The notes: generated by a model not told the origin, from the sequence alone. DNA of 32,420 nt from an uncultured Candidatus Saccharibacteria bacterium (GCA_964523275.1 CAZFZI010000002.1:3217-35636); one strand, 5' to 3'; positions 2,375 to 31,427 are shown, counted from the stretch's first letter. Made by a program: numbers and translations.

Positions 2375-2383
2375 AATAAATTT

Positions 2384-4084: not shown

Positions 4085-4148
4085 TATTACACCACAATCC
4101 GCTTTTGCGGCGGATTGAAAGCAAACAGATATCGCCATTCCGAATGGT

Positions 4149-4461: not shown

Positions 4462-4504
4462 TAGCCAATTGGCAAGAGCCAGCTTGAATGCTAAAATATA
4501 AAAG

Positions 4505-4650
4505 CCAAATTCTAAACTCTAAACCCTAAATCCCAAACAAATTCAAAAATCAAAATGTCAAAACCTAAAACAGAATTTTTATCCTGTTTTGAATTTGAAA
4601 ATTTGAATTTTGAGTTTGTTTAGAATTTAGAAATTGGGATTTAGGATTTT
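4505..4650. repeat. type A palindromic intergenic cassette (copy A3)
   Basis: Left arm is ccctaaatcccaaacaaattcaaaaatcaaaat. Right arm is ttttgagtttgtttagaatttagaaattgggatttaggatttt. It ends 9 nt before the ATG at 4660. Confidence 0.8.
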
Positions 4651-4659
4651 AAATTATTT

Positions 4660-5289
4660 ATGGAATTAACTTTTATCGTTTTCTCAATTATCGCGTTGAT
4701 TTTTTCGGTGGTGATTCACGAAGTGGCGCATGGCGCGGCCGCCGCGGCTCAAGGAGATCCCACGGCCAAATTTGCCGGCCGCCTCACGTTAAATCCCTTG
4801 AAGCATCTGGATTGGACCGGATCGGTGTTTCTGCCGCTGGTTTTGGTTGTTTTGCAATCGCCGATACTTTTTGGTTGGGCGAAGCCCGTGCCGGTTAATC
4901 CGCTTAATTTCCGCGACAAAAGATGGGGCGACGCCAAAGTGGCGGCGGCGGGTGCGGCGGCCAATTTCGCGCTGGCGCTGGTTTTTGGATTGATTCTGCG
5001 GTTTTGGCCGGAAATTTCCGATCCGATAAGCGCCAATTTTTATATGTTGGCGCAAACGGTGGTGATAATCAATTTGGTTTTGGGAATTTTTAATTTGATT
5101 CCCATTCCGCCCTTGGACGGGTCGCATGTTCTGTTCGCGTTCCTGCCGCCGTCGCAAACCGATTTCAAAATTTTTCTGCAACGCTACGGATTTATTTTTT
5201 TGCTGGTCCTGATTTGGTTTTTCTCGCCGATCATCTGGCCCATCGTGGCGTTTCTATATCAATTAATCACCGGCACATTCTTGATGTAG
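4660..5289 (+). CDS. site-2 protease family (peptidase M50) integral membrane zinc metalloprotease
   Basis: An HEVAH (HExxH) motif sits in the first TM helix. The protein is multi-TM and has the NLIPIPPLDGSH motif typical of M50/COG1994 proteins. Confidence 0.8.
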   Translation: MELTFIVFSIIALIFSVVIHEVAHGAAAAAQGDPTAKFAGRLTLNPLKHLDWTGSVFLPLVLVVLQSPILFGWAKPVPVNPLNFRDKRWGDAKVAAAGAAANFALALVFGLILRFWPEISDPISANFYMLAQTVVIINLVLGIFNLIPIPPLDGSHVLFAFLPPSQTDFKIFLQRYGFIFLLVLIWFFSPIIWPIVAFLYQLITGTFLM

Positions 5290-6370: not shown

Positions 6371-6500
6371 AAATCAAAATCAAATTATAAATGATAAACA
6401 AAATCAAAATCAAATTTTAAAACGGAATTCGCAGTATTTGTTTTGATTTATAATTTGAGGTTTTGATTTTGTTTATAATTGAATTTTAGATTTTAAAATT
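6371..6500. repeat. type A' palindromic intergenic cassette (copy A4)
   Basis: Left arm is aaatcaaaatcaaattataaatgataaacaaaatcaaaatc. Right arm is ggttttgattttgtttataattgaattttagatttt. Apex is aaaacggaattcgcagtatt. It starts right after the rpsL TAA. Confidence 0.8.
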
Positions 6501-6506
6501 TTTAAA

Positions 6507-7200: not shown

Positions 7201-9309
7201 ATGTCCAGACAAGCTCTCCTTGAAAAAAATCGCAATTTCGGCGTGATCGCCCACATTGATGCCGGCAAGACCACCACTTCCGAGCGTATTTTGTTTTACA
7301 CCGGCTTGTCTCATAAGATCGGCGAAGTTCACGAAGGTGGCGCGATTATGGATTGGATGGAACAAGAGCGCGAGCGGGGGATCACGATTACGTCGGCGGC
7401 AACGACTTGTTTTTGGTCTCCGGGCGAATATTTGAGCAAGCAAAAAACCAACGAACATCGCTTTAATATCATTGACACCCCCGGACATATTGATTTTACC
7501 GCTGAAGTTCAGCGCGCTTTGCGCGTGCTGGATGGCGCGGTGGTGGTTTTTGACGGCGTGGCCGGCGTTCAACCTCAATCCGAAACGGTTTGGCGCCAAG
7601 CGGATAAATACTCGGTGCCGCGAATATGTTTTATAAATAAAATGGATCGGACAGGCGCCAGTTTTGAGCGTAGCTTGCAATCCATTTGGAAAAAATTGAA
7701 TCCCAACGCGGTTGCCGCGAACATTCCGATTGGAGAGGAGGACAAATTGAGCGGCGTGGTGGATTTGCTTCAAATGAAAGCGTTACGATTTAAAGGCGAC
7801 CACGGCCAAGAAGTGGTTGAAGAAGAAATTCCGGCGGACATGGTTAAAATGGCCCAGGAGTGGCGCGCCAAACTGGTGGAAAAGATTGTGGCCGAAGATG
7901 AAGCTTTACTGAATAAATATTTGGCCGGCGAAGAAATCTCTGTTGATGAATTGTGCCAAACTTTGAGAGCCGCGACAATTAAAGGAACGATTATTCCGGT
8001 TTTTTACGGGTCGTCGTTGAAAAACACCGGCGTGCAACCGGTTTTGGACGCGGTTTGTTACTATTTGCCCAGCCCGCTGGATTTGCCTCCGGTGAAGGGA
8101 ATGGAAGTGCGTGGCGAAGGCGAAATTTTGCGCCGGCCTGATGATGACGAACCGTTTACCGCTTTGGCGTTTAAAGTCGCGACCGATCCTTATGTTGGGA
8201 CATTAACATTTTTCCGTGTTTATTCGGGGCGTCTGAAAAAGGGTTCTTATGTGTTAAACACCACCACCGGAGAAAAAGAGCGGGTGGGACGGATGTTGCG
8301 GATGTATTCCAATGACCGCAAGGAAATTGACGAGGTTTGTACCGGCGATATCGCCGCGACGGTGGGTTTGAAAAATACTTTCACCGGGCACACTTTGTGC
8401 GATGAAGATCATCCGATCGTTTTGGAAAGGATCACTTTCCCGGAACCGGTGATTGACATTCGCATTGAGCCGAAGACCAAAGCCGATCAGGAAAAAATGG
8501 GTTTGGCGCTTAAGAAACTTTCCGATGAGGATCCGACCTTTCGCGTTAAATCCGATGAAGAAACCGGTGAAATGATTATCGGCGGTATGGGTGAATTGCA
8601 TTTGGATATTATTGTTGACAGAATGAGGCGCGAATTTAAAGTTGAAGCTGATGTGGGCCGGCCGCAAGTGGCATACAAGGAAACCATTAAAATCAATTCT
8701 GACGCGCAAGGAAAATTCATCAAGCAATCGGGCGGCCGCGGCCAATATGGCGATGTTCATATTCGGCTTGAACCGCAAGAACGCGGCGCGGGGTTTGAAT
8801 TTGTTGATGAGATCAAAGGCGGGGTAATTCCCAAAGAATATATCAGTCCGGCGCGCAAGGGTATTGAAGAGGCAATGGGGAAAGGCGTGGTGGCCGGTTA
8901 TCCGATGGTGGACTTGAAAGCGATTCTGGATGACGGATCATTTCATGAAGTTGATTCCTCGGAAATGGCGTTTAAGATCGCCGGTTCCATGGCGTTGCAA
9001 GCCGCGGCCAAAAAAGCCAATCCGGTTTTGCTTGAGCCGATAATGAAATTGGAAATAACCGTGCCGGAGGAATTTTTCGGCGATGTGATTGGCGATGTTT
9101 CTTCGCGTCGCGGAAAGATTGAAGATACTCAAGATCAGATGGAATCCAAAATTATCAACGTGAAAGTGCCGTTATCGGAAATGTTTGGCTATGCCACAAA
9201 TTTGCGATCGCTCACGCAAGGACGGGGAACATTCACAATGGAATTTGATTATTATGAGGAGGTGCCCGGCAACGTTGCTCAAGAAATTATTTCAGGAAAA
9301 CGAAAGTAG
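7201..9309 (+). CDS. fusA: elongation factor G
   Basis: G1 motif [14 protein letters not shown] and NKMD are present. Length is 702 aa. Synteny is rpsL-rpsG-fusA-tuf. Confidence 0.97.
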
Positions 9310-11742: not shown

Positions 11743-11885
11743 AAAATCAAATTATAAATAATAAATTATAAACAAAATCAAAATCTTAAATTATAAATCT
11801 AAAAAAATAACATGTATTCCGTTTTAAATTTTGATTTTAAATTTTGATTTTGTTTATAATTGGATTTTAAATTTTGATTTTTGAG
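11743..11885. repeat. type A' palindromic intergenic cassette (copy A6)
   Basis: It shares ataaacaaaatcaaaatc / ttttgattttgtttataattg with copy A4. Apex is tgtattccgtttt. It starts right after the rplC TAG. Confidence 0.8.
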
Positions 11886-11893
11886 ATATTTTT

Positions 11894-12604
11894 ATGGAAG
11901 CTGTAATCTATAATCAAAAAGGGGAAAAAACCAAAACGATGGAATTACCCAAAAATATTTTTGAGGTTAAGACCAATGCGGATTTGGTTTATCAGGTGGC
12001 AACGACCCAAGCGGCTAATCGACGCCAAGTGACGGCGCACACCAAAGATCGGAGCGAAGTGTCGGGCGGCGGCAAAAAACCTTGGCGACAGAAGGGCACC
12101 GGCCGATCGCGCCACGGGTCCACTCGATCGCCGATTTGGCGTCATGGCGGCGTTGCGTTTGGTCCCAGAAACGATAAAGTTTACGGCGGTAAAATCAACA
12201 AAAAAATGCGCCGCAAGGCCTTGGCGATGATTTTATCGGCAAAAGCTTCAGCCGGAACGATGATGTTGCTTGACTCTCTTGAGACCGATCAGCCCAAGAC
12301 CAAGCAAGCGGTTCAAATTTTGGAAGCGGTGAAAAAGAACAATGCCAATTTCCAAAAGGGGAAAATCCTGATTGCTTTGTCCGGAATTGAAAAAAACATG
12401 GTATTGGCCGGAAGAAATATTCCCGGAGTGGAAACGGTTGAAGCGGTTAAATTGAATGTGCTTGATTTACTTAACTTTAAATGTCTTTTGATGCCCGCCG
12501 AATCAATAGAGGCGATTGCCGGAATTTTTGGAAAGGGCGGGGAGGTTAAAGAAAAACAAACCAAGACGGTGGCAAAAAAGCAAAAGTCCGCAGAAGAGAA
12601 CTAA
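11894..12604 (+). CDS. rplD: 50S ribosomal protein L4 (with Lys/Glu-rich C-terminal tail)
   Basis: SGGGKKPWRQKGTGRSRHGS motif is present. Synteny supports the call. Confidence 0.95.
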   Translation: MEAVIYNQKGEKTKTMELPKNIFEVKTNADLVYQVATTQAANRRQVTAHTKDRSEVSGGGKKPWRQKGTGRSRHGSTRSPIWRHGGVAFGPRNDKVYGGKINKKMRRKALAMILSAKASAGTMMLLDSLETDQPKTKQAVQILEAVKKNNANFQKGKILIALSGIEKNMVLAGRNIPGVETVEAVKLNVLDLLNFKCLLMPAESIEAIAGIFGKGGEVKEKQTKTVAKKQKSAEEN

Positions 12605-13914: not shown

Positions 13915-14068
13915 AAATCATAAATAAAATCCAAAACACTAAATCCTAAATCCTAAACAAATCCAAAATCCAAAATCAAAAATTCAAAGTAGTTCATATT
14001 CTCTGTTTTGAATTTGGAAATTTGAGTTTTGAATTTGTTTGGGATTTGGAAATTAGAAATTAGAATTT
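13915..14068. repeat. type A palindromic intergenic cassette (copy A8)
   Basis: Left arm is aaatcctaaatcctaaacaaatccaaaatccaaaatcaaaaattcaaa. Right arm is tttgaatttggaaatttgagttttgaatttgtttgggatttgg. A 38-nt arm alignment differs mostly by transitions. Confidence 0.85.
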
Positions 14069-14077
14069 ATTTGAAAT

Positions 14078-14368
14078 ATGGCTCGGAGTTTAAAAAAAGG
14101 TCCTTTCGTGGACGAAAAGTTAATGGAAAAAGTCAAAAAAGGCGGTAGTGTCGTCATTAAGACTTGGTCGCGCCGAAGCACGATTGTTCCCGAGATGATC
14201 GGAATGGTTTTCGCGGTGCATAACGGCAAGGAATTTATCACGGTCAAGCCCAATGAAGATATGGTGGGGCACAAGCTGGGAGAGTTTTCGCCGACGACCA
14301 AGTTCCATCGCCACGGAGGCAAAATGCAGAAAGAATTGGAAGCCAAGCAAGCAGGGGCAAAAAAATAG
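14078..14368 (+). CDS. rpsS: 30S ribosomal protein S19
   Basis: [12 protein letters not shown]... and VHNGK.F..V motifs are present. Confidence 0.95.
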
Positions 14369-14454
14369 CGCAAAGCCAAAAGCGCAAAGCGCAAAGCCAA
14401 AATGCGGATTTCGTATTTTCGCTTTACACTCTTCGCTTTACACTTTAAGTTTTT
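14365..14454. repeat. type B (GCGCAAAG) palindromic cassette, copy B1
   Basis: tagcgcaaagccaaaagcgcaaagcgcaaagcc ... cgctttacactcttcgctttacactttaag. The first unit overlaps the rpsS TAG stop. It ends 3 nt before the rplV ATG. Confidence 0.85.
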
Positions 14455-14457
14455 ATT

Positions 14458-14859
14458 ATGTCAATCACGGTTAAATTGAGACAATTGAAAATCACCGCTC
14501 GGAAAACGCGTTTGGTGGCGGATTTGGTGAGGTATAAAACAACAGGCGAGGCTGAGGCGCTTTTGAGATTTACTCCCAAAAAAGCCAGCTTGCCGTTGTT
14601 GAAATTATTGCGGTCGGCGATGGCGGCCGCCAAAAATACTTACAAACTTGATCCCGGAGATTTCTATATTGCCAAATTGACGGTTGATGACGGGCCGATG
14701 CAAGAAAGAGTTTTCCCTCGTTCGCGTGGAAGGGCTGATAAGATTCAAAAACGGACTTCCCACATTACTCTTACATTGGAACAAAAAGAAACAAAGAAAC
14801 GGAGCGATAAGCTGAAAGCCGCAAAAGAAGACAAAAAAGAAGACAAAGAGGATAATTAG
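14458..14859 (+). CDS. rplV: 50S ribosomal protein L22 (Lys/Glu-rich C-terminal tail)
   Basis: ITARKTRLVADLVR...A..LL.F.PKKAS core is present. Synteny supports the call. Confidence 0.93.
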   Translation: MSITVKLRQLKITARKTRLVADLVRYKTTGEAEALLRFTPKKASLPLLKLLRSAMAAAKNTYKLDPGDFYIAKLTVDDGPMQERVFPRSRGRADKIQKRTSHITLTLEQKETKKRSDKLKAAKEDKKEDKEDN

Positions 14860-14903
14860 GAAAAAAGTAAATTTTTGAAAGTGAATAATTTTTAAATTGA
14901 AAC

Positions 14904-15557
14904 ATGGCACACAAGGTTCACCCAAAAGCATTTAGAATAAAAGACGTTTCCGGATGGTATTCCCGCGGATACTATGAAAAGAATTTTTCCAAGCTGTTGG
15001 AAGAAGATTTTATGATAAGGGAGTTTCTTCACCGCCGTTTGGCGAGTATCGGTATTTCCGAGGTGGAGATTGAGCGGTTTCCCGGCAAAATCAGCGTGGC
15101 GATTTCTTGCGTTCGGCCGGGGCTGATTATCGGTCGGCAGGGACAGGGGATTGAAGAGTTGCGCAAGAAATTGCAGAAAATAATTATTGGGAAAAGCACA
15201 CAAAAAAAAGATAATGCCGATTTGCGGGTTGAGGTAAGGGAAATTGCCAATCCTTGGGCGTCTTCGTCCTATATCGGGCAATCTGTCGCGTCGCAGATAG
15301 AAAGAAGAATGCCATACTTAAAAGTTATAAAGCAAGTGATGGAAAAGGCGATGGCATCGCGAGAGGTTCAGGGCGTGCGGGTGCAGGTTTCCGGAAGGCT
15401 GAACGGCGTGGAAATTGCGCGGACGGCATGGTTGGCCAAGGGGCGTTTACCGAGGCAAACCATCAGGGCCGACATTGATTACGCGATCACCGAAGCTCAT
15501 TGCACTTATGGCGTAATTGGAATCAAAGTTTGGGTTTATAAAGGGGACAAGGTATAA
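14904..15557 (+). CDS. rpsC: 30S ribosomal protein S3
   Basis: MAHKVHPKAFR..., KH-domain GRQGQGIEELRK. Confidence 0.95.
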   Translation: MAHKVHPKAFRIKDVSGWYSRGYYEKNFSKLLEEDFMIREFLHRRLASIGISEVEIERFPGKISVAISCVRPGLIIGRQGQGIEELRKKLQKIIIGKSTQKKDNADLRVEVREIANPWASSSYIGQSVASQIERRMPYLKVIKQVMEKAMASREVQGVRVQVSGRLNGVEIARTAWLAKGRLPRQTIRADIDYAITEAHCTYGVIGIKVWVYKGDKV

Positions 15558-15678
15558 AAAATCAAAATTGAAAAATCAAAAATTAAAATTAAGGAATTAT
15601 TATATATATATCGTTGAAATTTTTGAAAAAATTTCAATACCAAAACTTTAAACTTTGATTTTTTAACTTTAAATTTGG
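15556..15678. repeat. type C palindromic intergenic cassette (copy C2)
   Basis: It starts aaaaaatcaaaattgaaaaatca, overlapping the AA of the rpsC TAA. It has an inner 10-bp AT hairpin at 15614-15637. The right end is tttaactttaaatttggaat before the ATG. Confidence 0.8.
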
Positions 15679-15681
15679 AAT

Positions 15682-16104
15682 ATGTCTTTATTGATGCCGA
15701 AAAAAATAAAACATCGCAAATGGCAGAAAGGCCGCCGAAGAGGCGTCGGTCTTTCTTATCGTGGCGCGGAATTGAATTATGGCAGTTTTGGACTGAAAGC
15801 GATGGAGGAAAAATGGATAACTTCTCGCCAAATTGAAGCGGCGCGTCGTGCGATTCTGAGGTACTTGAAAAAAGGAGGAAAGATGTGGATTCGGATTTTT
15901 CCGGACAAACCGGTGACCAGCAAGGGGGAAGAAGTGCCTCTGGGCGGTGGCAAGGGTGGAGTTGATCACTACGCGTTTGTGGTGAAGCCCGGCCGGATAA
16001 TGTATGAATTGGATGGCATCAAAGAAGATTTGGCACGCCAAGCGCTTGAAAAAGCCGGTGATAAATTGCCAATCAGGGTTAAATTTGTGAAGAAAGAGTT
16101 TTGA
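15682..16104 (+). CDS. rplP: 50S ribosomal protein L16
   Basis: [19 protein letters not shown]-terminus is present. The gene ends with a TGA stop. Confidence 0.95.
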
Positions 16105-16123
16105 ATAAAATAACGCAACATTG

Positions 16124-16306
16124 ATGAAAACATCGGAATTACGCCAAAAAAATAATCAGGAGTTAAATCAATTATTGGAAGAGCGGCTGACCAAGCTGGC
16201 CGGTTTGAAATTTGATTTGGCGGGCGGAAAAGTGAAAAATTTGAAAGAAATCCGCCAAACCAAGCTTGATATCGCACGTATTAAAACTTTGCAAAGAGAA
16301 AGTTAA
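16124..16306 (+). CDS. rpmC: 50S ribosomal protein L29
   Basis: [20 protein letters not shown]...[13 protein letters not shown]. The ATG at 16124 is preferred over the TTG at 16121. Confidence 0.9.
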
Positions 16307-16380
16307 AAAGCGAAAAACTAAAAGCGCAAAGCGCAAAGCAAAAATACGAATCCGTATTCCTGCTTTACGCTTTAAGTTTA
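16304..16380. repeat. type B (GCGCAAAG) palindromic cassette, copy B2
   Basis: taaaaagcgaaaaactaaaagcgcaaagcgcaaagcaaaaatacgaatccgtattcctgctttacgctttaag. It runs from the rpmC TAA to the rpsQ ATG. Confidence 0.85.
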
Positions 16381-16382
16381 TT

Positions 16383-16694
16383 ATGAAGCATCAATTAACA
16401 GGAAAAATAGTTTCTGACAAAATGGATAAAACCGTTGTGGTTTTGGTGGAGCGGCTTAAAGAGCATCCCAAATACCGCCGGCGTTATAAAGTGAGCAAAA
16501 AATACAAAGCTCATGACGAAAAAGGCGAGTACAAGATTGGCGATGTGGTGGTGATTGAGGAGTGCCGTCCGATCTCGGCGGATAAACGCTGGAAGGTGGT
16601 TAAAGAGGTTGTTGCCGCGGAGGTCAAAGACAAAGAAAGCAAAAACAAGAAAGGGAAAAAAGAGGGAGATCAAGACCAAGATAAGGAAGAATAA
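16383..16694 (+). CDS. rpsQ: 30S ribosomal protein S17 (acidic/basic C-terminal tail)
   Basis: [16 protein letters not shown]...HPKY.R......K..AHDE is present. The start was moved to the ATG at 16383, because the ORF-track start reads through cassette B2. Confidence 0.93.
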
Positions 16695-16779
16695 GGCGGC
16701 GGCATTGCATTTTTTTGCGATTTATAGTATATAAAAAAAGTTGCGGCGATTTTTGAAATTTTAGATTCAAACTCAAAAT

Positions 16780-17151
16780 ATGATTCAATTGAGGACAATG
16801 TTAAAGGTGGCGGATAACAGTGGCGGCAAGATCGTTCAGTGTTTTCATGTTGCCGGCGGAACGAGACGCAGGTATGCGGCAGTGGGGGATGTGATAATGG
16901 GCGCGGTGAAAGAGGCTGAGCCGCGAAAAGGAGTTAAAAAACACGATAAAGTGCGCGCGGTGATTGTCCGGCAAAGAAAGGAATACAAGCGTTCCGACGG
17001 CACTTATGTGCGTTTTGATGATAATGCCTGTGTGATTTTGGAAGGCAAAAGCAAAGAGCCCAAAGGCGGCCGTATTTTTGGGCCGGTGGCAAAAGAATTG
17101 AAAGTGAAGGGTTATGATAAGATTGCGGCGATAGCCAAAGAGCTGGTTTAA
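16780..17151 (+). CDS. rplN: 50S ribosomal protein L14
   Basis: MIQLRTMLKVADNSGGK N-terminus is present. Confidence 0.95.
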   Translation: MIQLRTMLKVADNSGGKIVQCFHVAGGTRRRYAAVGDVIMGAVKEAEPRKGVKKHDKVRAVIVRQRKEYKRSDGTYVRFDDNACVILEGKSKEPKGGRIFGPVAKELKVKGYDKIAAIAKELV

Positions 17152-17237
17152 AAGCGCAAAACTAAAAGCGCAAAGCGCAAAGCAAAAATACGAATTCGTA
17201 TTCCTGCTTTACTCTTTACACTTTACACTTTAAGTTT
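17149..17237. repeat. type B (GCGCAAAG) palindromic cassette, copy B3
   Basis: taaaagcgcaaaactaaaagcgcaaagcgcaaagcaaaaatacgaattcgtattcctgctttactctttacactttacactttaag. The apex aatacgaattcgtatt is a perfect 16-nt palindrome. Confidence 0.9.
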
Positions 17238-17239
17238 TT

Positions 17240-17563
17240 ATGAAGATTATTAAAGGCGACAATGTGTTAATAATATCCGGAAAAGACCGCGCGAAAACGG
17301 GAAAAGTGTTAAAATCTTTACCCAAGTTTGGCCGTGTTGTGGTGGAAGGCGTTAATATCGTCAAAAAAAGCCAGCGGCCCCGCCAGCAAGGGCAAAAAGG
17401 GCAGATTGTTTCCTTTTCCAAGCCGATTGATGTATCAAACGTGAAGTTGCTGTGTTCCAAATGCGGCAAGCCCACGCGAGTGGGTTACAGGGCGATGGAA
17501 GGTGAAAAAACCGGCCAAACGAAATCGGTGCGCGTTTGCAAGAAATGTTCGGCGGAAATCTAA
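17240..17563 (+). CDS. rplX: 50S ribosomal protein L24 (C-terminal CxxC...CxxC)
   Basis: MKIIKGDNVLIISGKDRAKTGKV (KOW motif) is present. The C-terminus carries CSKCGKPTRVGY...CKKC. Confidence 0.93.
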   Translation: MKIIKGDNVLIISGKDRAKTGKVLKSLPKFGRVVVEGVNIVKKSQRPRQQGQKGQIVSFSKPIDVSNVKLLCSKCGKPTRVGYRAMEGEKTGQTKSVRVCKKCSAEI

Positions 17564-17652
17564 AAAGCGCAAAACTAAAAGCGCAAAGCGCAAAGCAAAA
17601 ATACGAATTCGTATTCCTGCTTTACTCTTTACACTTTATACTTTAAGTTTTT
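17561..17652. repeat. type B (GCGCAAAG) palindromic cassette, copy B4
   Basis: Nearly identical to B3 over about 88 nt. One substitution is visible in the arms (ttacactttaag becomes ttatactttaag), and there are small length differences at the two ends. Confidence 0.9.
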
Positions 17653-17654
17653 AT

Positions 17655-18221
17655 ATGGCTTCTTTATACGAAAAATATAAAAAAGAGACGGTGGCGGAAT
17701 TGATGAAACAGTTTGGCTATCGCAATCAGAATCAAGCGCCTCGAATTGAAAAGGCGACGGTTAATTGCGGTTTTGGACGAATGATTTCAGGAAAGACCAA
17801 AGATGAGCAAAGAAAAATACAAGAAGCGGTGGCGCGGGATTTAACTCAAATTTGCGGACAGCTCGCGGTGGTAACCAAGGCGCGCAAATCAATTGCCGGT
17901 TTCAAGATTCGCGAAGGCCAAAACATCGGCGCCAAAATCACCTTGCGCCGCGCCCGTATGTATGATTTTTTGGAGAGAACGATTTTTGTGGCGTTGCCTC
18001 GTTCCCGTGATTTTCAGGGAATTCCGGCCAGAGGAGTTGATCAAGATGGAAATTTGACTTTTGGAATAAAAGAACATATTGCGTTTCCGGAAGTTTCGCC
18101 CGAAAAAATCAATTTTATTTTCAGCTTTGAAGTTACGATCACGACTACCGCGCGTTCCCGGGAAGAAGGATTGGAAATGTTTAAGTTGCTGGGGTTTCCC
18201 ATCCAAAAAAATCAAAATTGA
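17655..18221 (+). CDS. rplE: 50S ribosomal protein L5
   Basis: The N-terminus LYEKYKKE..ELMKQFGY.N....PRIEK and the internal motif FGIKEHIAFPE are present. The start was moved to the ATG at 17655, because the ORF-track start reads through cassette B4. The gene ends with a TGA stop. Confidence 0.93.
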   Translation: MASLYEKYKKETVAELMKQFGYRNQNQAPRIEKATVNCGFGRMISGKTKDEQRKIQEAVARDLTQICGQLAVVTKARKSIAGFKIREGQNIGAKITLRRARMYDFLERTIFVALPRSRDFQGIPARGVDQDGNLTFGIKEHIAFPEVSPEKINFIFSFEVTITTTARSREEGLEMFKLLGFPIQKNQN

Positions 18222-18265
18222 AAAATCTGCGTTTTATGCGCGGATATTTAAACTTTAAATTTGAA
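18205..18265. repeat. type C cassette, short copy C3, overlapping the last 5 codons and stop of rplE
   Basis: aaaaaatcaaaattgaaaaatc (18205-18226) matches the left ends of C2 and C4. A hairpin atctgcg/cgcggat follows. The right end is atatttaaactttaaatttgaaac before the ATG. Confidence 0.75.
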
Positions 18266-18267
18266 AC

Positions 18268-18453
18268 ATGGCTACAAAAGCACAAATTGCAAAATCAAAA
18301 AGAACACCCAAATTCAAATGCCGGGTGGTGCGGAGATGCTTTCGTTGTGGACGAAAACACGGGTATATGAGAAAATTTGGTTTGTGCCGCATTTGTTTTC
18401 GTGAGGCGGCTAACCAAGGGTTGATCCCCGGCGTGTCAAAGAGCAGCTGGTAA
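18268..18453 (+). CDS. rpsN: 30S ribosomal protein S14, short zinc-binding (type Z) form
   Basis: The protein is 61 aa with CFRCGR...CRIC cysteines and C-terminal KSSW. Confidence 0.93.
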
Positions 18454-18456
18454 TGT

Positions 18457-18600
18457 TTTAAAAATCAAAGCACTAAATATCAAATTCTAAATAAATTCAA
18501 AATCCAAAATCAAAAATTAAAAACAAAACGCAGTGTTAAAGTTTTGAAATTTGAATTTTTAATTTGTTTAGAATTTGAAAATTAGAATTTAGAAATTAAT
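18457..18600. repeat. type A palindromic intergenic cassette (copy A10)
   Basis: Left arm is aaattctaaataaattcaaaatccaaaatcaaaaattaaaaac. Right arm is gttttgaaatttgaatttttaatttgtttagaatttgaaaattagaatttag. Confidence 0.8.
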
Positions 18601-18606
18601 TTAATT

Positions 18607-19011
18607 ATGGATACAGTCGCAAATATGTTAACCGTGATTCGCAACGCCCAAGCGGTGGCAAAACCGATGGTGGCCGTCCCTTATTCGCGTTTGAATTACG
18701 ACATCGCCAAGATTCTTGAAAGAAGGGGTTTTGTCGCGGGGGCGGAAAAAAGAAGCCGCAAGGTAAAGAAAAGCGCTAAAACCAGGCTTTGTTTGGAGAT
18801 TACGCTGAAATACACCGATAAAATTCCGGCGGTGGCCGGGTGCAAAAAAGTTTCCAAGTCCGGACAAAGGATTTATGTGGCGGCAAGCAATATCAAAAGA
18901 GTTAAGCAAGGGCGCGGTATTGGCATTATTTCAACTTCAAAGGGGCTGATGACTGAATACGACGCGAAGAAACAGAATATCGGCGGTGAAATGCTTTGCG
19001 AGATTTGGTAA
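18607..19011 (+). CDS. rpsH: 30S ribosomal protein S8
   Basis: DTVANMLTVIRNA N-terminus is present. Synteny supports the call. Confidence 0.95.
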   Translation: MDTVANMLTVIRNAQAVAKPMVAVPYSRLNYDIAKILERRGFVAGAEKRSRKVKKSAKTRLCLEITLKYTDKIPAVAGCKKVSKSGQRIYVAASNIKRVKQGRGIGIISTSKGLMTEYDAKKQNIGGEMLCEIW

Positions 19012-19014
19012 TAT

Positions 19015-19077
19015 AAAAAATCAAAATTGAAAAATCAAGAATCAAAATTTTTGATATTTAAATTTTAAATTTGAAAC
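19015..19077. repeat. type C cassette, short copy C4
   Basis: aaaaaatcaaaattgaaaaatcaagaatcaaaatttttgatatttaaattttaaatttgaaac runs directly into the rplF ATG. Confidence 0.8.
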
Positions 19078-19623
19078 ATGAGCAGAATAGGCAAAAAACC
19101 GATTATAATTCCCGCGGGAATCCAAGTGGAAATTGATGAATCGCTGGTGAAGGTGAAGGGCGTGAAAGGCGAGCTGGCTCGCGATTTCGGATCGCAGGTT
19201 TCGGTTATCAAAGAAGATGGCTTGCTGAAAGTTTTGCCCAAAAACGAAAGCAAATTCGCGCGCGCGATGTGGGGCACGGTGAGAATGCATCTGGCGAATA
19301 TGATTGAGGGAACAAGCAATGGCTTTGCCAAGCAGTTGCAGATTGAGGGCATTGGTTATCGCGCGGTTCTTGAAGGAGATAATTTGGTTTTGAATATGGG
19401 GTTCACTAATCCGGTTGCCATCGCCAAACCCGAGGATATTTCTTTTAAAGTGGAAAAAAATATTATTACTGTTTCCGGGTGTAATAAGGAATCAGTGGGA
19501 AAAGTTGCCGCGCAGATCCGCCGAGTGCGTCCGCCGGAACCCTATAAGGGCAAAGGTATTCGCTATGTCGGTGAAAAAGTGCGCCGGAAGGTGGGCAAGA
19601 AAGCTGCCGGGGCCGCCAAATAA
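19078..19623 (+). CDS. rplF: 50S ribosomal protein L6
   Basis: MSRIGKKPIIIPAGIQV N-terminus and a PEPYKGKGIRY motif are present. Confidence 0.95.
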   Translation: MSRIGKKPIIIPAGIQVEIDESLVKVKGVKGELARDFGSQVSVIKEDGLLKVLPKNESKFARAMWGTVRMHLANMIEGTSNGFAKQLQIEGIGYRAVLEGDNLVLNMGFTNPVAIAKPEDISFKVEKNIITVSGCNKESVGKVAAQIRRVRPPEPYKGKGIRYVGEKVRRKVGKKAAGAAK

Positions 19624-19710
19624 AAAAGCGCAAAGTTAAAAGCGCAAAGTTAAAAGCAAAAATACGAATCCGCATTTTTGTTTCACACTTTCCGCTTCAC
19701 ACTTTAAGAT
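19621..19710. repeat. type B (GCGCAAAG) palindromic cassette, copy B5
   Basis: taaaaaagcgcaaagttaaaagcgcaaagttaaaagcaaaaatacgaatccgcatttttgtttcacactttccgcttcacactttaag. It begins at the rplF TAA. Confidence 0.85.
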
Positions 19711-19716
19711 TTCAAG

Positions 19717-20103
19717 ATGAGCACTAGTAACAAAACACAACATAAATTGAAAAGAAGGGATGACCGGCACCGTCGCGTGCGCGCCAAGGTGGCGGGAGTG
19801 GCGTTGCGGCCCAGATTGTGCGTTTTTCGTTCCAACAAGCATATTTCCGTTCAATTGATTGATGATAAAAAAGGTGCCACTTTGGCGGCTTGCGATGATT
19901 TGAAAATTGCCGCCGGAACGACTGAAGCAAAAGACGGCTTGTCGTCAAAATGCGCTTTGGCCTTCGCGGTTGGGCTGGAAATAGCAAAAAAAGCGCAACA
20001 ATTAAAGATCACTGGCGCGGTTTTTGATCGCGGCGGATATCGTTATCATGGACGTGTGAAAAGTTTGGCTGACGGCGCGCGGCAAGGCGGACTTGAATTT
20101 TAA
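19717..20103 (+). CDS. rplR: 50S ribosomal protein L18
   Basis: RHRRVRAKV.G...RPRL.VFRSNKHI..Q.IDD and DRGGY.YHGRVK..ADGAR..GL.F are present. Confidence 0.95.
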   Translation: MSTSNKTQHKLKRRDDRHRRVRAKVAGVALRPRLCVFRSNKHISVQLIDDKKGATLAACDDLKIAAGTTEAKDGLSSKCALAFAVGLEIAKKAQQLKITGAVFDRGGYRYHGRVKSLADGARQGGLEF

Positions 20104-20188
20104 AAGCGCAAAGCTAAAAGCGCAAAGCTAAAAGCAAAAATACGAATCCGCATTCTTGCTTTATACTTTTCGCTTTACACTTTAAGAT
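20101..20188. repeat. type B (GCGCAAAG) palindromic cassette, copy B6
   Basis: taaaagcgcaaagctaaaagcgcaaagctaaaagcaaaaatacgaatccgcattcttgctttatacttttcgctttacactttaag. It begins at the rplR TAA. Confidence 0.85.
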
Positions 20189-20194
20189 TATTTT

Positions 20195-20887: not shown

Positions 20888-20913
20888 ACCAGATATTGAA
20901 ATTAACTATTTTT

Positions 20914-21345: not shown

Positions 21346-21487
21346 AAATCCCAAGAACCAAATCTCAAATCCCAAACAAAATCAAAAATCAAAATTCAAA
21401 AATTAAAACAAAAATCTTTCCGTTTTGGATTTGAAAATTTGATTTTTGAATTTATTTGAGATTTGGGATTTAGAATTTGGAATTTAA
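21346..21487. repeat. type A palindromic intergenic cassette (copy A13)
   Basis: Left arm is aaatctcaaatcccaaacaaaatcaaaaatcaaaattcaaaaattaaaac. Right arm is gttttggatttgaaaatttgatttttgaatttatttgagatttgggatttagaattt. It runs from the rplO TAA to 5 nt before the secY ATG. Confidence 0.8.
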
Positions 21488-21492
21488 ATTCA

Positions 21493-26517: not shown

Positions 26518-27672
26518 ATGGATACTGATTTTGCCATTAAAAAAAAGAGTTTGGGGCAGTTTTTTACTACCAACTCCAATTATATTTTGCAAGGATTGGG
26601 AGGTTTTGTCGCGGGGAAAAGGGTGGTTGATCCGTTTGCCGGCAATTGTGAATTATTAAACTGGGTTGAAGGCAACGGAGCCAAAAGTGCAACGGGTTTT
26701 GATTGTGATCAAGATTATGTTGATGGTAAAAAAGTGTTTTATAATGACTCTATTAATGCACCGCGAAATTATGAATTTGTTTGTACCAATCCTCCTTATT
26801 TGCATAAAAACAAGGCATCGCGCGAAATTAAACAAAAATTTTTTTCCGGCGAAAATGCTATTTTTGAAGACTTGTATCAAGTTTCAATTAAATCCATATT
26901 GAACTGCCACGAAGGGATAATTATTGTGCCCTTGAATTTTTTATGCGCGCAAAACTCGCAAAAGGCAAGAGATTTGTTTTTTGAAAAATTCCAAATTGTG
27001 AAATTAAATATCTTTTTGCGGCAAGTTTTTGACGATACCACCTATAACGTTATCGCTTTTTATTTTACAAGGAATCAGGGATTGCCAAAAAATATCGTTG
27101 ACGCGGTGATTTATCCTGAAAATAAAAAAATCAAGCTAACATTTGAAAAAAAATTTGGCTGGCAATTCGGGGGAGAGTTTATCGGTAGAATAAAAGAAAC
27201 TAAAAATAAATTGGGAATTTCTCGATTAACTGAAAATGATATTGATGCCGGAGATTGTGAAGTCCCAATGGCATTGGAAAATATTAAAAACAAAAAAGTT
27301 TTTAAAACAAATCATGATATTAAAAATCTGCTTGATAAAAATATCTTATTTTTGCGCGCGATTGACAGCAAAAACGGTAAAAAAATCCAACTTGAAGATA
27401 TTAGGAAGTATAATATTGCCGGTCTGGTCGGGAAAAGCACTTCGCGGAATATGGCACACCTGCTTTTTCAAAAGGATGTTTCTGTTAAAGAGCAACTTGA
27501 TCTGATGGAATTTTTCAATGAAAGCCTTCAGTTGAACCGAGAAAAATACTTTTCGTTTTTCTTAACAAATTTCAGGGACAATAATCGCAAAAGAATGTCG
27601 TTTGATTTAGCTTACAGGCTTTTGAATCTGATCTACTCTCAAAAATATGAAAACCAATCTTCACTATTTTGA
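26518..27672 (+). CDS. gamma-class N6-adenine DNA methyltransferase (type II R-M M subunit)
   Basis: Motif order is GQFFTT, then VVDPFAGNCELL (AdoMet motif I), then CTNPPYL (motif IV NPPY). The C-terminal half is unassigned and is presumably the target-recognition domain. Confidence 0.8.
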   Translation: MDTDFAIKKKSLGQFFTTNSNYILQGLGGFVAGKRVVDPFAGNCELLNWVEGNGAKSATGFDCDQDYVDGKKVFYNDSINAPRNYEFVCTNPPYLHKNKASREIKQKFFSGENAIFEDLYQVSIKSILNCHEGIIIVPLNFLCAQNSQKARDLFFEKFQIVKLNIFLRQVFDDTTYNVIAFYFTRNQGLPKNIVDAVIYPENKKIKLTFEKKFGWQFGGEFIGRIKETKNKLGISRLTENDIDAGDCEVPMALENIKNKKVFKTNHDIKNLLDKNILFLRAIDSKNGKKIQLEDIRKYNIAGLVGKSTSRNMAHLLFQKDVSVKEQLDLMEFFNESLQLNREKYFSFFLTNFRDNNRKRMSFDLAYRLLNLIYSQKYENQSSLF

Positions 27673-27949
27673 AATATCAAAGAATAATCCGGAGCAATTA
27701 TTGGATGACGCTTATGTTTTTGATGAAAGACATCCTGATTTGGATAAATATATTCAAAACGCAAAAGAGATTAAAAGTATATTAATCACTATTCGCACTT
27801 TGGTTAAAAGCAATGAAAAACGTGAAGTGATTGATAGGTATTTTGGCCAGCTTTCAAAAATAATCGGCAAGCATTCCAACTGTTCGGAATTTGCTTGTTT
27901 TGTTAATGCTTGTGACAATATTATCGCCGATGCGAAAAATGAAATCTGA
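27647..27949 (+). CDS. hypothetical 100-aa protein, possibly the severed N-terminal part of the downstream nuclease
   Basis: The ATG overlaps the MTase 3' end by 26 nt. It is in the same frame as the 27992 ORF, separated only by TGA 27947-27949 and 14 sense codons. Confidence 0.45.
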   Translation: MKTNLHYFEISKNNPEQLLDDAYVFDERHPDLDKYIQNAKEIKSILITIRTLVKSNEKREVIDRYFGQLSKIIGKHSNCSEFACFVNACDNIIADAKNEI

Positions 27950-27991
27950 TTATTAGAGAAAATTGCTGAAAAATATTTCGCGAAAAGAATT

Positions 27992-28579
27992 TTGAATGAG
28001 GCTGTTCCTGAAGAATGGGTGCAGGCGCTGATTGATAAAAATTCATCAAGCAAGAAAGGCAAAAGCGGAGAAAAAAAGCTTGTTAAAATTCTTGAGAAAT
28101 TGGGGTTTGAGGAGGTTTTTGATTGGAATGATTTTAAAATCAAAAAATGTGTTGTAATGAAATTTTCTAAAAGGATTAATTTGAAAAGTGTGCGCAAAAA
28201 TTTGGGAATTAAAATTAAAACTAAAAAACAAAATAAAACATTGGATTTAATTATTAAAGCCCAAAACAAAATTTTTATTTGTGAAGCGAAACATTTGAAT
28301 ACTTCGGGCGGCGCCCAGGATAAGCAGATTTCCGAGTTGATTGAGATAATTGGCTTGAAAGAAAAGAACGGAATTTCCTATGTTGCTTTTTTTGATGGAA
28401 AATATTCTAATATCTTTCTGGGCGGTAGCGGTGGTGGCGATAAAATAACCGCGCAAAGAAAAGAATTGGCCAAATGCCTGCGTGCCAATCCGCAAAATTA
28501 TTGGGTGAATACGTCCGGGTTTGAGGCGTTGTTTTTAGATTTGGCTGAAAGCGCAAACAGTAACGCGATCAGCAAATAA
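27992..28579 (+). CDS. PD-(D/E)xK restriction-endonuclease-like nuclease (TTG start, or C-terminal part of a split gene)
   Basis: TLDLIIKAQNKIFICEAKH gives D-x13-E-x-K. A Glu-containing helix lies upstream (GEKKLVKILEKLGF). It is adjacent to a DNA MTase. Confidence 0.55.
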   Translation: MNEAVPEEWVQALIDKNSSSKKGKSGEKKLVKILEKLGFEEVFDWNDFKIKKCVVMKFSKRINLKSVRKNLGIKIKTKKQNKTLDLIIKAQNKIFICEAKHLNTSGGAQDKQISELIEIIGLKEKNGISYVAFFDGKYSNIFLGGSGGGDKITAQRKELAKCLRANPQNYWVNTSGFEALFLDLAESANSNAISK

Positions 28580-28804: not shown

Positions 28805-29158
28805 ATGACGAAAAAGCAAAAAATTTGGCTGGTAATTTTTGGCGCAATGTTTTTAATCCCGGAAATCTTGTGGACAGGGACAGTGGGTAAGGCTGTTTAT
28901 TATTGGGTATTGGGCAATAGCGTTAAGGGTGGTATTTTAAGTTTTAATTTATTGGTAATTCCCCAGTCGGCTAATCTTGCCAAATTTATTTATTTAGTTG
29001 AATTTATTGGAATTTTGGGAAGTTTTATTTATATTATTAATTTTTATCATCCAAAAAATAAATTATTAAAATACTTTTTATTGATTCTTCTGGGGTTGTT
29101 ATTGTCTATTGCTTTTTGTTATGTAATGTTTGTTATGAGTTTTGGAAACTTGCCATAA
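28805..29158 (+). CDS. small integral membrane protein (117 aa, about 4 TM)
   Basis: Four hydrophobic stretches are present. The gene is AT-rich. Its stop lies 10 nt before the lipase ATG. Confidence 0.6.
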   Translation: MTKKQKIWLVIFGAMFLIPEILWTGTVGKAVYYWVLGNSVKGGILSFNLLVIPQSANLAKFIYLVEFIGILGSFIYIINFYHPKNKLLKYFLLILLGLLLSIAFCYVMFVMSFGNLP

Positions 29159-29168
29159 AAATAAATTA

Positions 29169-31427
29169 ATGAAATCCGGATTTGAAATTATCCCATTTTT
29201 GTTTATTGCAATGTGTTTATGTGCATACTCTTTTGCGCAAGAACTGCCGGAAATTGTGATTGAGGATGCGGATGCCACCACCACGATTAATTTAGTCGCG
29301 CCGCCAAGTGATTTGTTTGATGCCTCGGAGGTTGACTTACGCTTGCCCAACGAGGCGGTGATTTGTCGCGCGGATGAAAAGATGACCATTGATTTGGCCC
29401 CGCCGCCCGATGATTTGTTTGATGCCTCGGAGGTTGATTTACGCTTGCCCAACGAGGCGGCAGTTTGTCGTGCCGACGAAGTTGTTGTGATTGATCTGAT
29501 CGCGCCGCCGGAGGAATTTTTTGATCCCGCGCCGGAAGTGAAAATTCTATCAAGAACGCCGGTTTTGTTTGTGCCGGGATTATTAAGCACGGAAATTAGA
29601 AACAATGAAGATCTCTTATGGCTAGATTTGGAAAAAGTTTTTTGGTCAACACCTGATGATTTTTTAGACGATCTTTCTTTTCAAAACGATTTAACGCCAT
29701 ATAACGATGCTTTATCATTGGGACAAGTTATAAAGACAAAGATTATCCCATTTTATTGGGATTATGATTACTCGCAAGGGTTGATGGATGAGTTTGCGGG
29801 GCAGGGGTATGATGTCAATGAGGACAGCGGCGAGCAAACTTTCTACACTTTTCCCTATGATTGGCGCTATGGCGCCAGCGGGGTCTATCCAAAACCGGAA
29901 AATACCAGCCAGCGTGATATCACCAACAGTGATTTGTTGGCAGAAAGGATTGGGCAATTGGCGGCAATTTCGCCCATGGGCAAAGTTGATGTGATCGCCC
30001 ACAGTTTGGGCGGGTTGATCGTCAAAAAATATGTTGCACAAATTTCGGAACCCAAGATCAACAAACTGGTGTTTGTGGGCGTGCCCAATTTGGGCGCGCC
30101 GCTTGCCGGCCGGGCGCTGATTCACGGCACTGATTTTGGCGTGTTCGGTCTCAACCCGCAGGAATTGAAAAAAATTTCCCAAAATATGCCCGCGGCCTAT
30201 GATTTATTGCCCAGCCAGGCGTATTTTTCCGCCAAAGGCGCGTGGTTGAGTAAGGTCAAGCCCACGACGGTTTTTGGCATCAACCAAACAAACGAGCAGG
30301 ATTATGTCCAAACACGGATATATTTGGCCGGCGTGGGACTGAACGGCGCGGCAACTCAAAACGCGATTGATTTTCATTCCGAGTTTGATGCAATGCTCGC
30401 GGAAGATTTTTTGGCCAAGGAAATTGATTCCTACAATATTGTTGGTTGCAAATCGGCAACCTTTTCCAATCTGCAGGATTGGGTTAACCCTGACGGCACT
30501 CACAACCATTATGATTTTTTTGACATTGCCAACGGTGATGACACCGTTCCGTTTGAGTCGGCCAATCGCCGGCTGGCAAGCGATGCAAACACTTTGTACG
30601 CGCCGGCCGTCAAGCACGGCCAAATGCCCAGCTTTGACGGCATACGCCAAAAAATAGTTGGCATTATTTCGGGCAACAACATTGCGGTTCCAAACGGAAA
30701 GATTGTTGCTCGGGTGCAATTGCTGGCGGACAACAACTTGTGCCGGCTTTGGGGAACGGCCATCAAAATTGAAAGTCCGCTGGCGATAAAGATCACCGAT
30801 CAGTTTGGCAACATCATTGAGGATGTTGCCGGCATCGGCCCCAAAAACGAAATTCCGGGCGCGGCATTTGAAATTGACGGCGCAAAAAAGTTTGTCTATT
30901 TGCCCCAGGATACCGGCGAGCAATACCAAATTGATTTGCAGGGAACCGGCGATGGGCTTTTCACTCTCACAACGCAAGCGGTCAAAAATGATATTCTTCA
31001 AACGCCGCGGGTTTTTGGCAACATTCCGGTTGGGTTTGAAACACGGGGAATCTTGGAAATTGGCGATCAAGAAACAATTCTAAAAATTAACGCCGGGGGC
31101 AACGGCCCGATTGACCAAACATTCTCGCAAGATGACAATTTGAGCGTTGATGAACTGACAGAAGACTTTGATCGCTATGTTGATCAAGGATTGATAAAAA
31201 AGCCGCAAAGCAAAATTTGGGGAGGTGCTTTGCGAAGCATAAAAAGTTTGCTGGCGGTTTGGCAAAAAAACAAAAACAAGGAAAGTGGCAAATCATCCTT
31301 GGCGTTGGCGCGGGCGGCCAATGAACGGATTGATTCGCTGATCGCGCAGATCGGGGAAGTCCAAGGGGCTGATGCCAAAACCTCCCGATTGTTGATAAAT
31401 TCGCTGGAACGTTTAAAATTAAAATGA
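29169..31427 (+). CDS. secreted LCAT-like (lecithin:cholesterol acyltransferase family) alpha/beta-hydrolase lipase/acyltransferase, 752 aa
   Basis: The signal peptide is MKSGFEIIPFLFIAMCLCAYSFA-QE. PVLFVPGLLSTE, PYDWRYG and the nucleophile elbow AHSLGG are present. Candidate Asp is in GDDTVPF and candidate His in VKHGQMP. The ATG at 29169 is preferred over the TTG at 29142. Confidence 0.75.
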   Translation: MKSGFEIIPFLFIAMCLCAYSFAQELPEIVIEDADATTTINLVAPPSDLFDASEVDLRLPNEAVICRADEKMTIDLAPPPDDLFDASEVDLRLPNEAAVCRADEVVVIDLIAPPEEFFDPAPEVKILSRTPVLFVPGLLSTEIRNNEDLLWLDLEKVFWSTPDDFLDDLSFQNDLTPYNDALSLGQVIKTKIIPFYWDYDYSQGLMDEFAGQGYDVNEDSGEQTFYTFPYDWRYGASGVYPKPENTSQRDITNSDLLAERIGQLAAISPMGKVDVIAHSLGGLIVKKYVAQISEPKINKLVFVGVPNLGAPLAGRALIHGTDFGVFGLNPQELKKISQNMPAAYDLLPSQAYFSAKGAWLSKVKPTTVFGINQTNEQDYVQTRIYLAGVGLNGAATQNAIDFHSEFDAMLAEDFLAKEIDSYNIVGCKSATFSNLQDWVNPDGTHNHYDFFDIANGDDTVPFESANRRLASDANTLYAPAVKHGQMPSFDGIRQKIVGIISGNNIAVPNGKIVARVQLLADNNLCRLWGTAIKIESPLAIKITDQFGNIIEDVAGIGPKNEIPGAAFEIDGAKKFVYLPQDTGEQYQIDLQGTGDGLFTLTTQAVKNDILQTPRVFGNIPVGFETRGILEIGDQETILKINAGGNGPIDQTFSQDDNLSVDELTEDFDRYVDQGLIKKPQSKIWGGALRSIKSLLAVWQKNKNKESGKSSLALARAANERIDSLIAQIGEVQGADAKTSRLLINSLERLKLK
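29286..29543 (+). repeat. 102-bp (34-aa) in-frame tandem repeat, about 2.5 copies, in the lipase N-terminal region
   Basis: I(N/D)L.APP.DLFDASEVDLRLPNEA..CRADE occurs at 29286-29387 and 29388-29489, with a partial third copy. Confidence 0.9.

Follow-up and report, generated by a model that had tools for sequence, protein, structure and literature searches.

The stretch of DNA analysed here, 32,420 nt long and referred to throughout as the window, carries on its plus strand the str/S10/spc ribosomal-protein operon of an uncultured bacterium: rpsL, rpsG, fusA, tuf and the genes from rpsJ through rplO, followed by secY, adk and map. The source belongs to the Patescibacteria (candidate phyla radiation, CPR). 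In ribosomal protein L6 it shares 72% identity with Candidatus Nealsonbacteria DGGOD1a, and the other named matches are Paceibacterota. Six gaps between genes of this operon hold copies (B1 to B6) of a palindromic repeat, here called Type B, and each copy fills its whole gap, from stop codon to start codon (6/6). In all six, the long hairpin pairs on the strand antisense to the genes.

Type B is about 85-90 nt long, AT-rich, and built of units of about 7 nt (AAAGCGC / ACACTTT). It is an imperfect palindrome over its full length, so constructed that its termini, TTAAAAG... and ...CTTTAAG, pair together, and the conserved CTTTAAG terminus sits 8-11 nt ahead of the ATG of the following gene. B2 is shorter, its right arm being without the outer repeat units; B3 and B4 share 99% identity. 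One reading frame through Type B is open, and for this reason gene callers lengthen the N-termini of rpsQ, rplE and rpsM: open reading frame (ORF) finders and public gene calls run rpsQ (142 amino acids; window 16266-16694), rplE (17502-18221) and rpsM (158 amino acids; 14038-14514 of locus L036) upstream through the repeat.

The DNA examined from the genome itself amounts to about 60 kb (the window, L017 and L036). Relatives are cited by locus, with DGGOD1a as L015, the metagenome-assembled genome (MAG) POMEDNA-B22 as L021, a Minisyncoccales MAG as L026 and GCA_964449485.1 as L007. The genome of DGGOD1a has the accession CP092821.1, and the POMEDNA-B22 MAG the accession JAXDBQ01. Type B copies of one genome or lineage share ancestry; counts of copies are inflated by this and are not independent.

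An earlier note on this DNA, made from the sequence alone, had claimed that Type B pairs better as antisense than as sense RNA, and had proposed folding both strands and tabulating the arm mismatches. Both checks bear the claim out. The two folding energies are unequal in every window copy: as sense RNA the six copies reach -20.3 to -23.0 kcal/mol (z -2.3 to -4.4 against dinucleotide shuffles) and as antisense RNA -30.3 to -38.1 kcal/mol (z -5.1 to -6.7), the antisense fold being the stronger in 6/6. With DNA parameters the direction is the same and the gap smaller (sense -12.7 to -15.3, antisense -18.3 to -20.2). The sense hairpin is limited to the apical part, yet it is better than its shuffles. 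When the left arm of each copy is aligned to the reverse complement of its right arm, the six copies together show 37 sense C:A or A:C mismatches, all of which are G:U pairs in the antisense strand, against 3 sense G:U pairs (binomial p = 2e-8, for related copies whose counts are not independent). About 21 further mismatches over the six copies are transversions, which disturb both strands. The more specific statement that every GCGC of the left arm of B3 faces ACAC is mostly right; the innermost GCGC faces ACTC, one position of which is a transversion mismatch.

Table 1. Type B copies and other hairpin elements. Positions are in the window unless another locus is named. Genes are on the plus strand, and for Type B the strand given is that of the paired long hairpin. 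Energies are in kcal/mol; HMM, hidden Markov model.
Feature	Position	Strand	Gap	Sense energy	Antisense energy	Sense C:A vs G:U	Remark
B1	14369..14457	-	rpsS/rplV	-21.4	-35.9	6 vs 0	HMM score forward 92 bits vs reverse strand 47.7
B2	16307..16383	-	rpmC/rpsQ	-23.0	-30.3	5 vs 1	
B3	17152..17239	-	rplN/rplX	-20.4	-38.1	8 vs 1	antisense z -6.7
B4	17564..17655	-	rplX/rplE	-20.4	-35.3	7 vs 0	
B5	19624..19716	-	rplF/rplR	-21.2	-31.8	6 vs 0	
B6	20104..20194	-	rplR/rpsE	-20.3	-35.7	5 vs 1	
Type A/Type C hairpin gap	2235-2383						
Type A/Type C hairpin gap	6371-6506						
Type A/Type C hairpin gap	11743-11893						
Type A/Type C hairpin gap	13915-14077						
Type A/Type C hairpin gap	15558-15681						
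Type A/Type C hairpin gap	18454-18606						
Type A/Type C hairpin gap	19012-19077						
Type A/Type C hairpin gap	21346-21492						
Twin GC-rich module	L015 5014-5136						
Twin GC-rich module	L015 5506-5613						
Twin GC-rich module	L015 9847-10000						
Twin GC-rich module	L015 10547-10697						
Twin GC-rich module	L015 11082-11230						
Twin GC-rich module	L015 12451-12589						

The strand asymmetry is real and specific to Type B. The other hairpin repeats of the same operon, Type A and Type C, are roughly strand-symmetric, so the bias is a property of Type B, and ordinary intergenic DNA in the examined loci folds, if anything, better in the sense direction. Mutational bias was considered as the cause and rejected. 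A coding strand rich in G+T is the usual skew of leading or non-template strands, and the four-fold sites of 25 genes follow it, with a GC skew of +0.07 and an AT skew of -0.23 on the coding strand. The coding-strand copy of Type B is skewed the opposite way (GC skew -0.20, AT skew +0.12). Because the asymmetry opposes the neutral skew of the operon it is not mutational, and copies inserted the other way round, described below, carry a flipped bias.

It may be asked whether the weaker, sense hairpin is the functional one: a moderate intercistronic stem-loop for processing or stabilisation of the mRNA or for re-initiation, tuned by C:A mismatches, with the stability of the antisense strand as a by-product. 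Such a stem-loop would suit the uniform sense energies, -20 to -23 kcal/mol in 6/6 and better than shuffles, as well as the exact stop-to-start extent and the fixed position of CTTTAAG before the ATG. We nevertheless consider it quite improbable. Sense G:U pairs should then be common, yet they are about 10-fold rarer than sense C:A and depleted relative to neutral expectation; reversed copies exist; and most of the gaps are short and empty in the relatives L009-L011.

The same polarity is found across the family. An alignment of 25 copies from six lineages, set on the G/U-rich strand, gives a gapless ladder of 38 positions in which 630 cells are Watson-Crick pairs, 139 G:U, 14 C:A and 103 other. 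Over a 33-pair core, standard pairs make up 95.2% of cells on the G/U-rich strand and 79.8% on its complement. G:U exceeds C:A in 21 columns and C:A exceeds G:U in 4 (sign test p = 0.0009), and many different columns alternate between Watson-Crick and G:U among the copies, one of them as the series CG (16), UG (4) and UA (4). RNAalifold recovers the long helix from the same alignment. Pairing is kept on the G/U-rich strand of the element across the family. A strain variant of B5 in L004 has one T-to-C change, which turns a Watson-Crick pair into an antisense G:U.

L007, whose L6 is 94% identical to that of the window, has all six copies and allows orthologs to be compared. Between the two, 12 pair-state changes are between Watson-Crick and G:U, 2 between Watson-Crick and C:A, 1 between Watson-Crick and another state, and 4 between G:U and another state. 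A neutral simulation was given rates from the four-fold sites of the same pair of genomes (8.1% divergence; 47 transitions, 8 transversions). Changes that break antisense pairing are depleted against it (2 observed, 9.1 expected; P = 0.004), and those that form antisense G:U pairs are close to neutral (12 observed, 14.8 expected). Type B as a whole differs at 31/513 positions (6%), near the divergence at four-fold sites. The differences are clustered in B4 and B6, which suggests, from the sequences compared, gene conversion among Type B copies there. Since conversion recycles variation that is already biased, the ortholog test is firmer for selection on the family than for selection at each site.

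These results bear on the simplest account, in which there is no selection at all and the pattern is the founder effect of one asymmetric master copy combined with strand-biased mutation. That the copies are paralogs, with B3 and B4 all but identical, and that they diverge between orthologs almost as fast as four-fold sites, is what this account would predict. It is highly improbable all the same. The bias runs against the neutral skew, many columns switch between Watson-Crick and G:U (including the CG/UG/UA series), the column sign test stands at 21 to 4, the simulation rejects equal rates, and flipped copies show a flipped bias. A founder effect alone is rejected by the polymorphism over many columns together with the neutral simulation.

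Type B copies are lineage-variable insertions at exact gene junctions. In L009-L011 (78% identity), five of the six gaps are spacers of 12-41 nt, and the sixth, rpmC/rpsQ, is a 64-nt spacer with a non-B repeat. L012, DGGOD1a, the POMEDNA-B22 MAG and the Minisyncoccales MAG have Type B at partly different gaps, and their remaining gaps hold unrelated palindromic families, often where the window has Type B. The rplN/rplX gap, the site of B3, holds B-like copies also in DGGOD1a, L021 and L026. Outside the ribosomal operon, a copy in L024 lies between atpA and atpG, giving atpA a new TAA stop, and atpG there starts with GTG; the two genes overlap through ATGGAGCTTAA in three relatives (L030, L031 and L034), and in L029 a different repeat family is inserted at the same junction. 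The contrast of filled and empty gaps and the split atpA/atpG junction show that these are real insertion events. The flanks of Type B are stop codons and A/T runs, compatible with or without a TTAA or TAA duplication. A conserved regulatory hairpin of the operon was considered and rejected: the gaps are empty or non-B in L009-L011 and hold other families elsewhere.

Among the matches listed, Type B appears confined to a Nealsonbacteria-like clade of the Patescibacteria. A scan of genome contigs with the exact pattern gave no match, and a scan of metagenomes gave, among the matches listed, only two contigs, both of one relative. A looser pattern returned 6 apparent chance matches in unrelated phyla and three useful loci. 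A pattern scan of viral contigs found no Type B, and the atp operons of five further relatives (L028-L035) have no copy. Membership of a known RNA family was rejected, there being no Rfam match at the gathering score; in Rfam 15 the sole match in the window is a tRNA, at 3853-3923(-), and there is none for Type B.

The orientation of these insertions differs between ribosomal and other sites. In distinct gaps of ribosomal operons, 13/13 are forward, with the G/U-rich strand antisense (binomial p = 0.0002), and in the POMEDNA-B22 lineage 8/8 ribosomal-operon copies are oriented as in the window. By comparison, the copy of this lineage after atpA (atpA/atpG, in L024) is reversed, folding at -29.9 kcal/mol in the sense and -10.6 in the antisense direction with no sense C:A and 7 sense G:U. 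The copy after atpD (atpD/atpC) is reversed (-28.0 and -21.4; 2 sense C:A, 5 G:U), and so is one that immediately precedes the ATG in the nusA leader (-25.3 and -22.0). A copy between atpG and atpD is ambiguous, wobble counts and folding indicating the forward orientation and the HMM score the reverse. Three of four non-ribosomal sites are thus reversed, against 0/13 ribosomal ones (Fisher p = 0.006, for sites that are not fully independent). As an observation on these gaps in general, atpG/atpD folds slightly better antisense in 4/4 genomes (L024, L028, L029, L030), whichever repeat family it holds, and atpA/atpG and atpD/atpC fold better sense; the effect is small and its sign consistent.

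The genome itself has a seventh copy, in the rpmJ/rpsM gap 3 kb past the end of the window, which is forward by HMM score and strand-symmetric (sense -27.5, antisense -26.8; 3 sense C:A, 2 sense G:U). The earlier note had held that its claim would fall if more copies from the genome showed transition mismatches in mixed directions. The seventh copy does show them, but it is a diverged copy. Together with the flipped atp and nusA copies it indicates that the polarity belongs to the element and not to being antisense. The ribosomal operon is distinguished by the uniform orientation of its copies.

The strong strand has several features of a terminator. It reads 5'-...AAAGUGUAAAGCGAAAAGUGUAAAGCA..loop..UGCUUUGCGCUUUGCGCUUUUAGUUUUGCGCUUUU, with a 3' arm in which GCGC blocks alternate with U runs, and it forms a hairpin of about 33 pairs that ends in UUUUAGUUUU. 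The complementary strand folds in its apical third only, because its matching positions become C:A mismatches. In the six copies, U-rich tails directly follow hairpins of -25 to -32 kcal/mol on the antisense strand; the sense values are -10 to -20. Intrinsic terminators likewise have a hairpin of GC blocks followed by U runs, and the upstream A runs recall bidirectional terminators. Type B differs from a canonical terminator in that its stem is far longer and more AU-rich, and in that it lies inside operons, not at their ends. The strong strand may terminate, attenuate or stabilise transcripts.

The explanation we favour, and to which we give an even chance of being right, is that Type B is a polar, terminator-like palindromic repeat, tolerated in the ribosomal operon only when its weak strand is the one in the mRNA; no antisense RNA gene is required. 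The strong strand would act on RNA polymerase or on mRNA ends, as a hairpin-plus-U-tract terminator, an attenuator or a 3' stabiliser. Insertions with the strong strand as sense would be purged from an operon that needs read-through at equal dosage, and the 'transparent' orientation would survive. The strong-sense orientation could be tolerated, or even used, where it occurs behind atpA and atpD and in the nusA leader. The antisense-favouring asymmetry of the window would then be the product of the polarity of the element and of selection on its orientation. The junctions that follow atpA and atpD mark the 3:1 steps in dosage of the F1 complex, and the nusA leader is a classic autoregulatory termination site in model bacteria. 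The flipped copies at these places fit a polar terminator, if anecdotally.

Several points weigh against this explanation. A simple terminator scan flags the antisense strand of only 2/6 copies (B2 and B5), and the region as a whole shows no excess of terminator-like sites (17 vs 11.8 +/- 4.3). The reversed copies, three clear and one ambiguous, come from one lineage only. The same mRNA tolerates AT-rich Type A hairpins of -29 to -42 kcal/mol, and so the stability of a hairpin alone cannot be the target of selection. Since strong termination between atpA and atpG would do harm, no more than partial termination can be assumed. No target-site duplication and no transposase was found for Type B in the examined loci. 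Uniform orientation could also arise through local copying within the operon that preserves orientation. Finally, the apparent constraint on the antisense strand between orthologs hints at a function in place, of which a filter on orientation has no need.

Such a function would make the minus-strand hairpin and U tract a one-way terminator, or some other antisense RNA structure, that halts spurious antisense transcription into the ribosomal operon and whose weak complement lets operon transcription through. This is doubtful, although it deserves some credence, and the earlier note had offered a reading of the same kind. Part of that reading stands: it is the strand complementary to the ribosomal operon that keeps its pairing, mutation does not account for the bias, and between window and L007 the transitions that break antisense pairing are depleted while those that make G:U pairs are about neutral. 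The antisense strand moreover presents a GC-block hairpin and then UUUUAGUUUU, and the adjacent AT-rich repeats hold many promoter-like hexamers. What does not stand is the idea of fixed features of the operon tied to the antisense direction. The copies are lineage-variable and evidently dispensable, five of the six gaps being short and empty and the sixth non-B in L009-L011, and Type B is flipped in the atp operon and nusA leader of a relative. The rpmJ/rpsM copy is symmetric. A promoter-like site suitably placed on the minus strand to feed an antisense transcript lies at 1/6 copies, next to B1 (14484-14455), and the promoter scan found none beside B2 to B6. The 15 kb downstream contain no gene on the minus strand. 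Gene conversion among polar copies, as the clusters in B4 and B6 suggest, can also yield the ortholog pattern. A cis-antisense RNA gene, considered separately, is not supported, a placed antisense promoter being found at 1/6 copies only.

A bolder version, which likewise can be held only tentatively, would join orientation and function. Type B may be a domesticated one-way 'diode' for transcription, set backwards in the ribosomal operon, where it would kill antisense transcription and pass that of the operon, and flipped elsewhere to serve as an attenuator at the 3:1 steps after atpA and atpD and in nusA autoregulation. If this is true, a lineage of the Patescibacteria has recruited a mobile hairpin as a general terminator module programmable by orientation.

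The last alternative places the activity in DNA. The G/T-rich strand would be the active, single-stranded hairpin of a mobile element, which an enzyme specific for one strand would recognise, as in REP/RAYT or IS200/IS605; its polarity would be kept by selection to propagate, and its orientation set by insertion relative to replication. Type B does insert and turn over, its polarity persists under DNA parameters and is family-wide and independent of the direction of transcription, and a related genome (L028, a DGGOD1a-like MAG) has an IS200/IS605-type Y1_Tnp gene at 12015-12464, beside a serine recombinase. We regard this alternative as unlikely. The L028 gene is flanked by its own GC-rich CCCTG(C/T)(C)GGTCTTGCCGCAGGG hairpins, unrelated to Type B, and no Y1 (RAYT) gene flanked by Type B occurs in the roughly 60 kb of own-genome DNA examined. 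There is no GTAG or CGTC tag, and G:T pairs stabilise DNA little. By skew, the strong strand in the ribosomal operon is the leading-strand template, which is the wrong strand for the IS608 model. Both orientations apparently occur in one atp operon, if the ambiguous atpG/atpD copy is forward; in that case alone would a strict rule of replication break down.

By analogy with known systems, Type B, a new family, may act like the intercistronic palindromes of the ERIC type or of miniature inverted-repeat transposable elements (MITEs). ERIC/IRU elements are imperfect palindromes of 127 bp, transcribed from intergenic regions of enterobacteria; like Type B they are co-transcribed in operons and vary in presence among relatives. 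Type B has no sequence relation to them, is shorter, consists of units of about 7 nt, fills its gaps exactly from stop to start and has a host among the Patescibacteria. The effect of ERIC on flanking mRNA is described as depending on orientation (De Gregorio et al. 2005, as summarised in PMC2229807). More generally, elements of the ERIC, Correia and REP types are credited with long transcript hairpins, orientation-dependent effects on mRNA and variable occupancy (PMC2229807, PMC3733652, PMC3184786).

REP/BIME elements and REPINs resemble Type B in being extragenic palindromic repeats with a defined element strand. REPs are described as 20-40 bp long and GC-rich, with a GTAG or CGTC tag, and roles in termination and in stabilising mRNA have been proposed for them (PMC3733652). 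Membership of the REP/RAYT group was rejected on tag, size and composition: Type B is about 85 nt long and AT-rich, and the 25-copy consensus has no GTAG/CGTC head on either strand. Transcripts of the Neisseria Correia/NEMIS elements form long stem-loops proposed to be RNase III targets (PMC2229807). These and other bacterial MITEs are, like Type B, small non-autonomous insertions at gene junctions. Type B has the terminal inverted repeats of a MITE, and its filled and empty sites are clear; its palindrome, however, spans the whole length instead of forming terminal inverted repeats around a core. An integron attC site was rejected: folding of one strand is the sole feature in common, the consensus has no GTTRRRY/RYYYAAC boxes, there is no integrase among the called genes, and the flanks are those of a ribosomal operon. 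A literature search for palindromic repeats or MITEs in Patescibacteria/CPR returned nothing relevant, the TIGR arrays it brought up being unrelated tandem arrays.

As a one-way hairpin repeat combined with orientation filtering, Type B is a clear case from nature and not a new principle. A signal that the antisense strand folds better can stem from the polarity of a mobile repeat together with selection on its orientation, which calls for caution when the functional strand is inferred from counts of G:U against C:A. If the strong strand terminates or attenuates, these insertions would be natural, orientation-dependent switches of expression in organisms where gene regulation is almost unknown. 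In this reduced Patescibacteria genome, moreover, long hairpin families that turn over have colonised the gaps of the most conserved of operons; we found no description of this in the literature.

Nearly all the remaining gaps of the operon are occupied by long AT-rich hairpins of about 7-nt units, Type A or Type C, which are about symmetric between strands (Table 1). Between window and L007 these differ at 6 positions in 764 nt, compared with 8.1% at four-fold sites and 6% in Type B, and they look far more conserved than neutral, or recently homogenised. A further element, a twin GC-rich hairpin module consisting of CCGCCnGAGGCGG and then TGCnCCTCAGGnGCnG, occurs in L007 at 8908-9003 and is absent from the matching gap of the window (19012-19077). 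In DGGOD1a the module is found in both orientations within the ribosomal operon. The rplR/rpsE gap of that genome resembles the 17-nt spacer of L026 with a twin module inserted, possibly flanked by a duplication of TTGAAA.

The gene-dense part of the window has a single minus-strand island, made up of the tRNA gene (3853-3923) and rpmB (4149-4349). Type A-like hairpin elements flank rpmB on both sides (3943-4092 and 4492-4662), and the tRNA gene lies just to the left of the first. Downstream of the ribosomal operon, a stretch of lower G+C (0.32-0.36) at 26518-28579 contains restriction-modification-like genes with weak Eco57I-like and DpnII-like Pfam matches. Beyond it, two tandem units of 102 nt (29268-29471; 81% identity) lie within a 761-amino-acid LCAT-like ORF (29142-31427).

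No rpmD (L30) gene is present between rpsE and rplO (window 20888-20895). The upstream regions of all the ribosomal genes in the window have no GGAGG-type Shine-Dalgarno sequence, and the start regions of these genes resemble TTTAAATTTGAAACATG or CTTTAAGTTTTTATG. The rpsQ/rplN gap (16695-16779) contains no repeat; it has instead a promoter-like arrangement of TTGCAT, a 17-nt spacer and TAnAnT. The motif is kept at the same gap in L012, L015 and L021, with the TTGCAT part also in L009, and probably represents an internal promoter of the spc operon.

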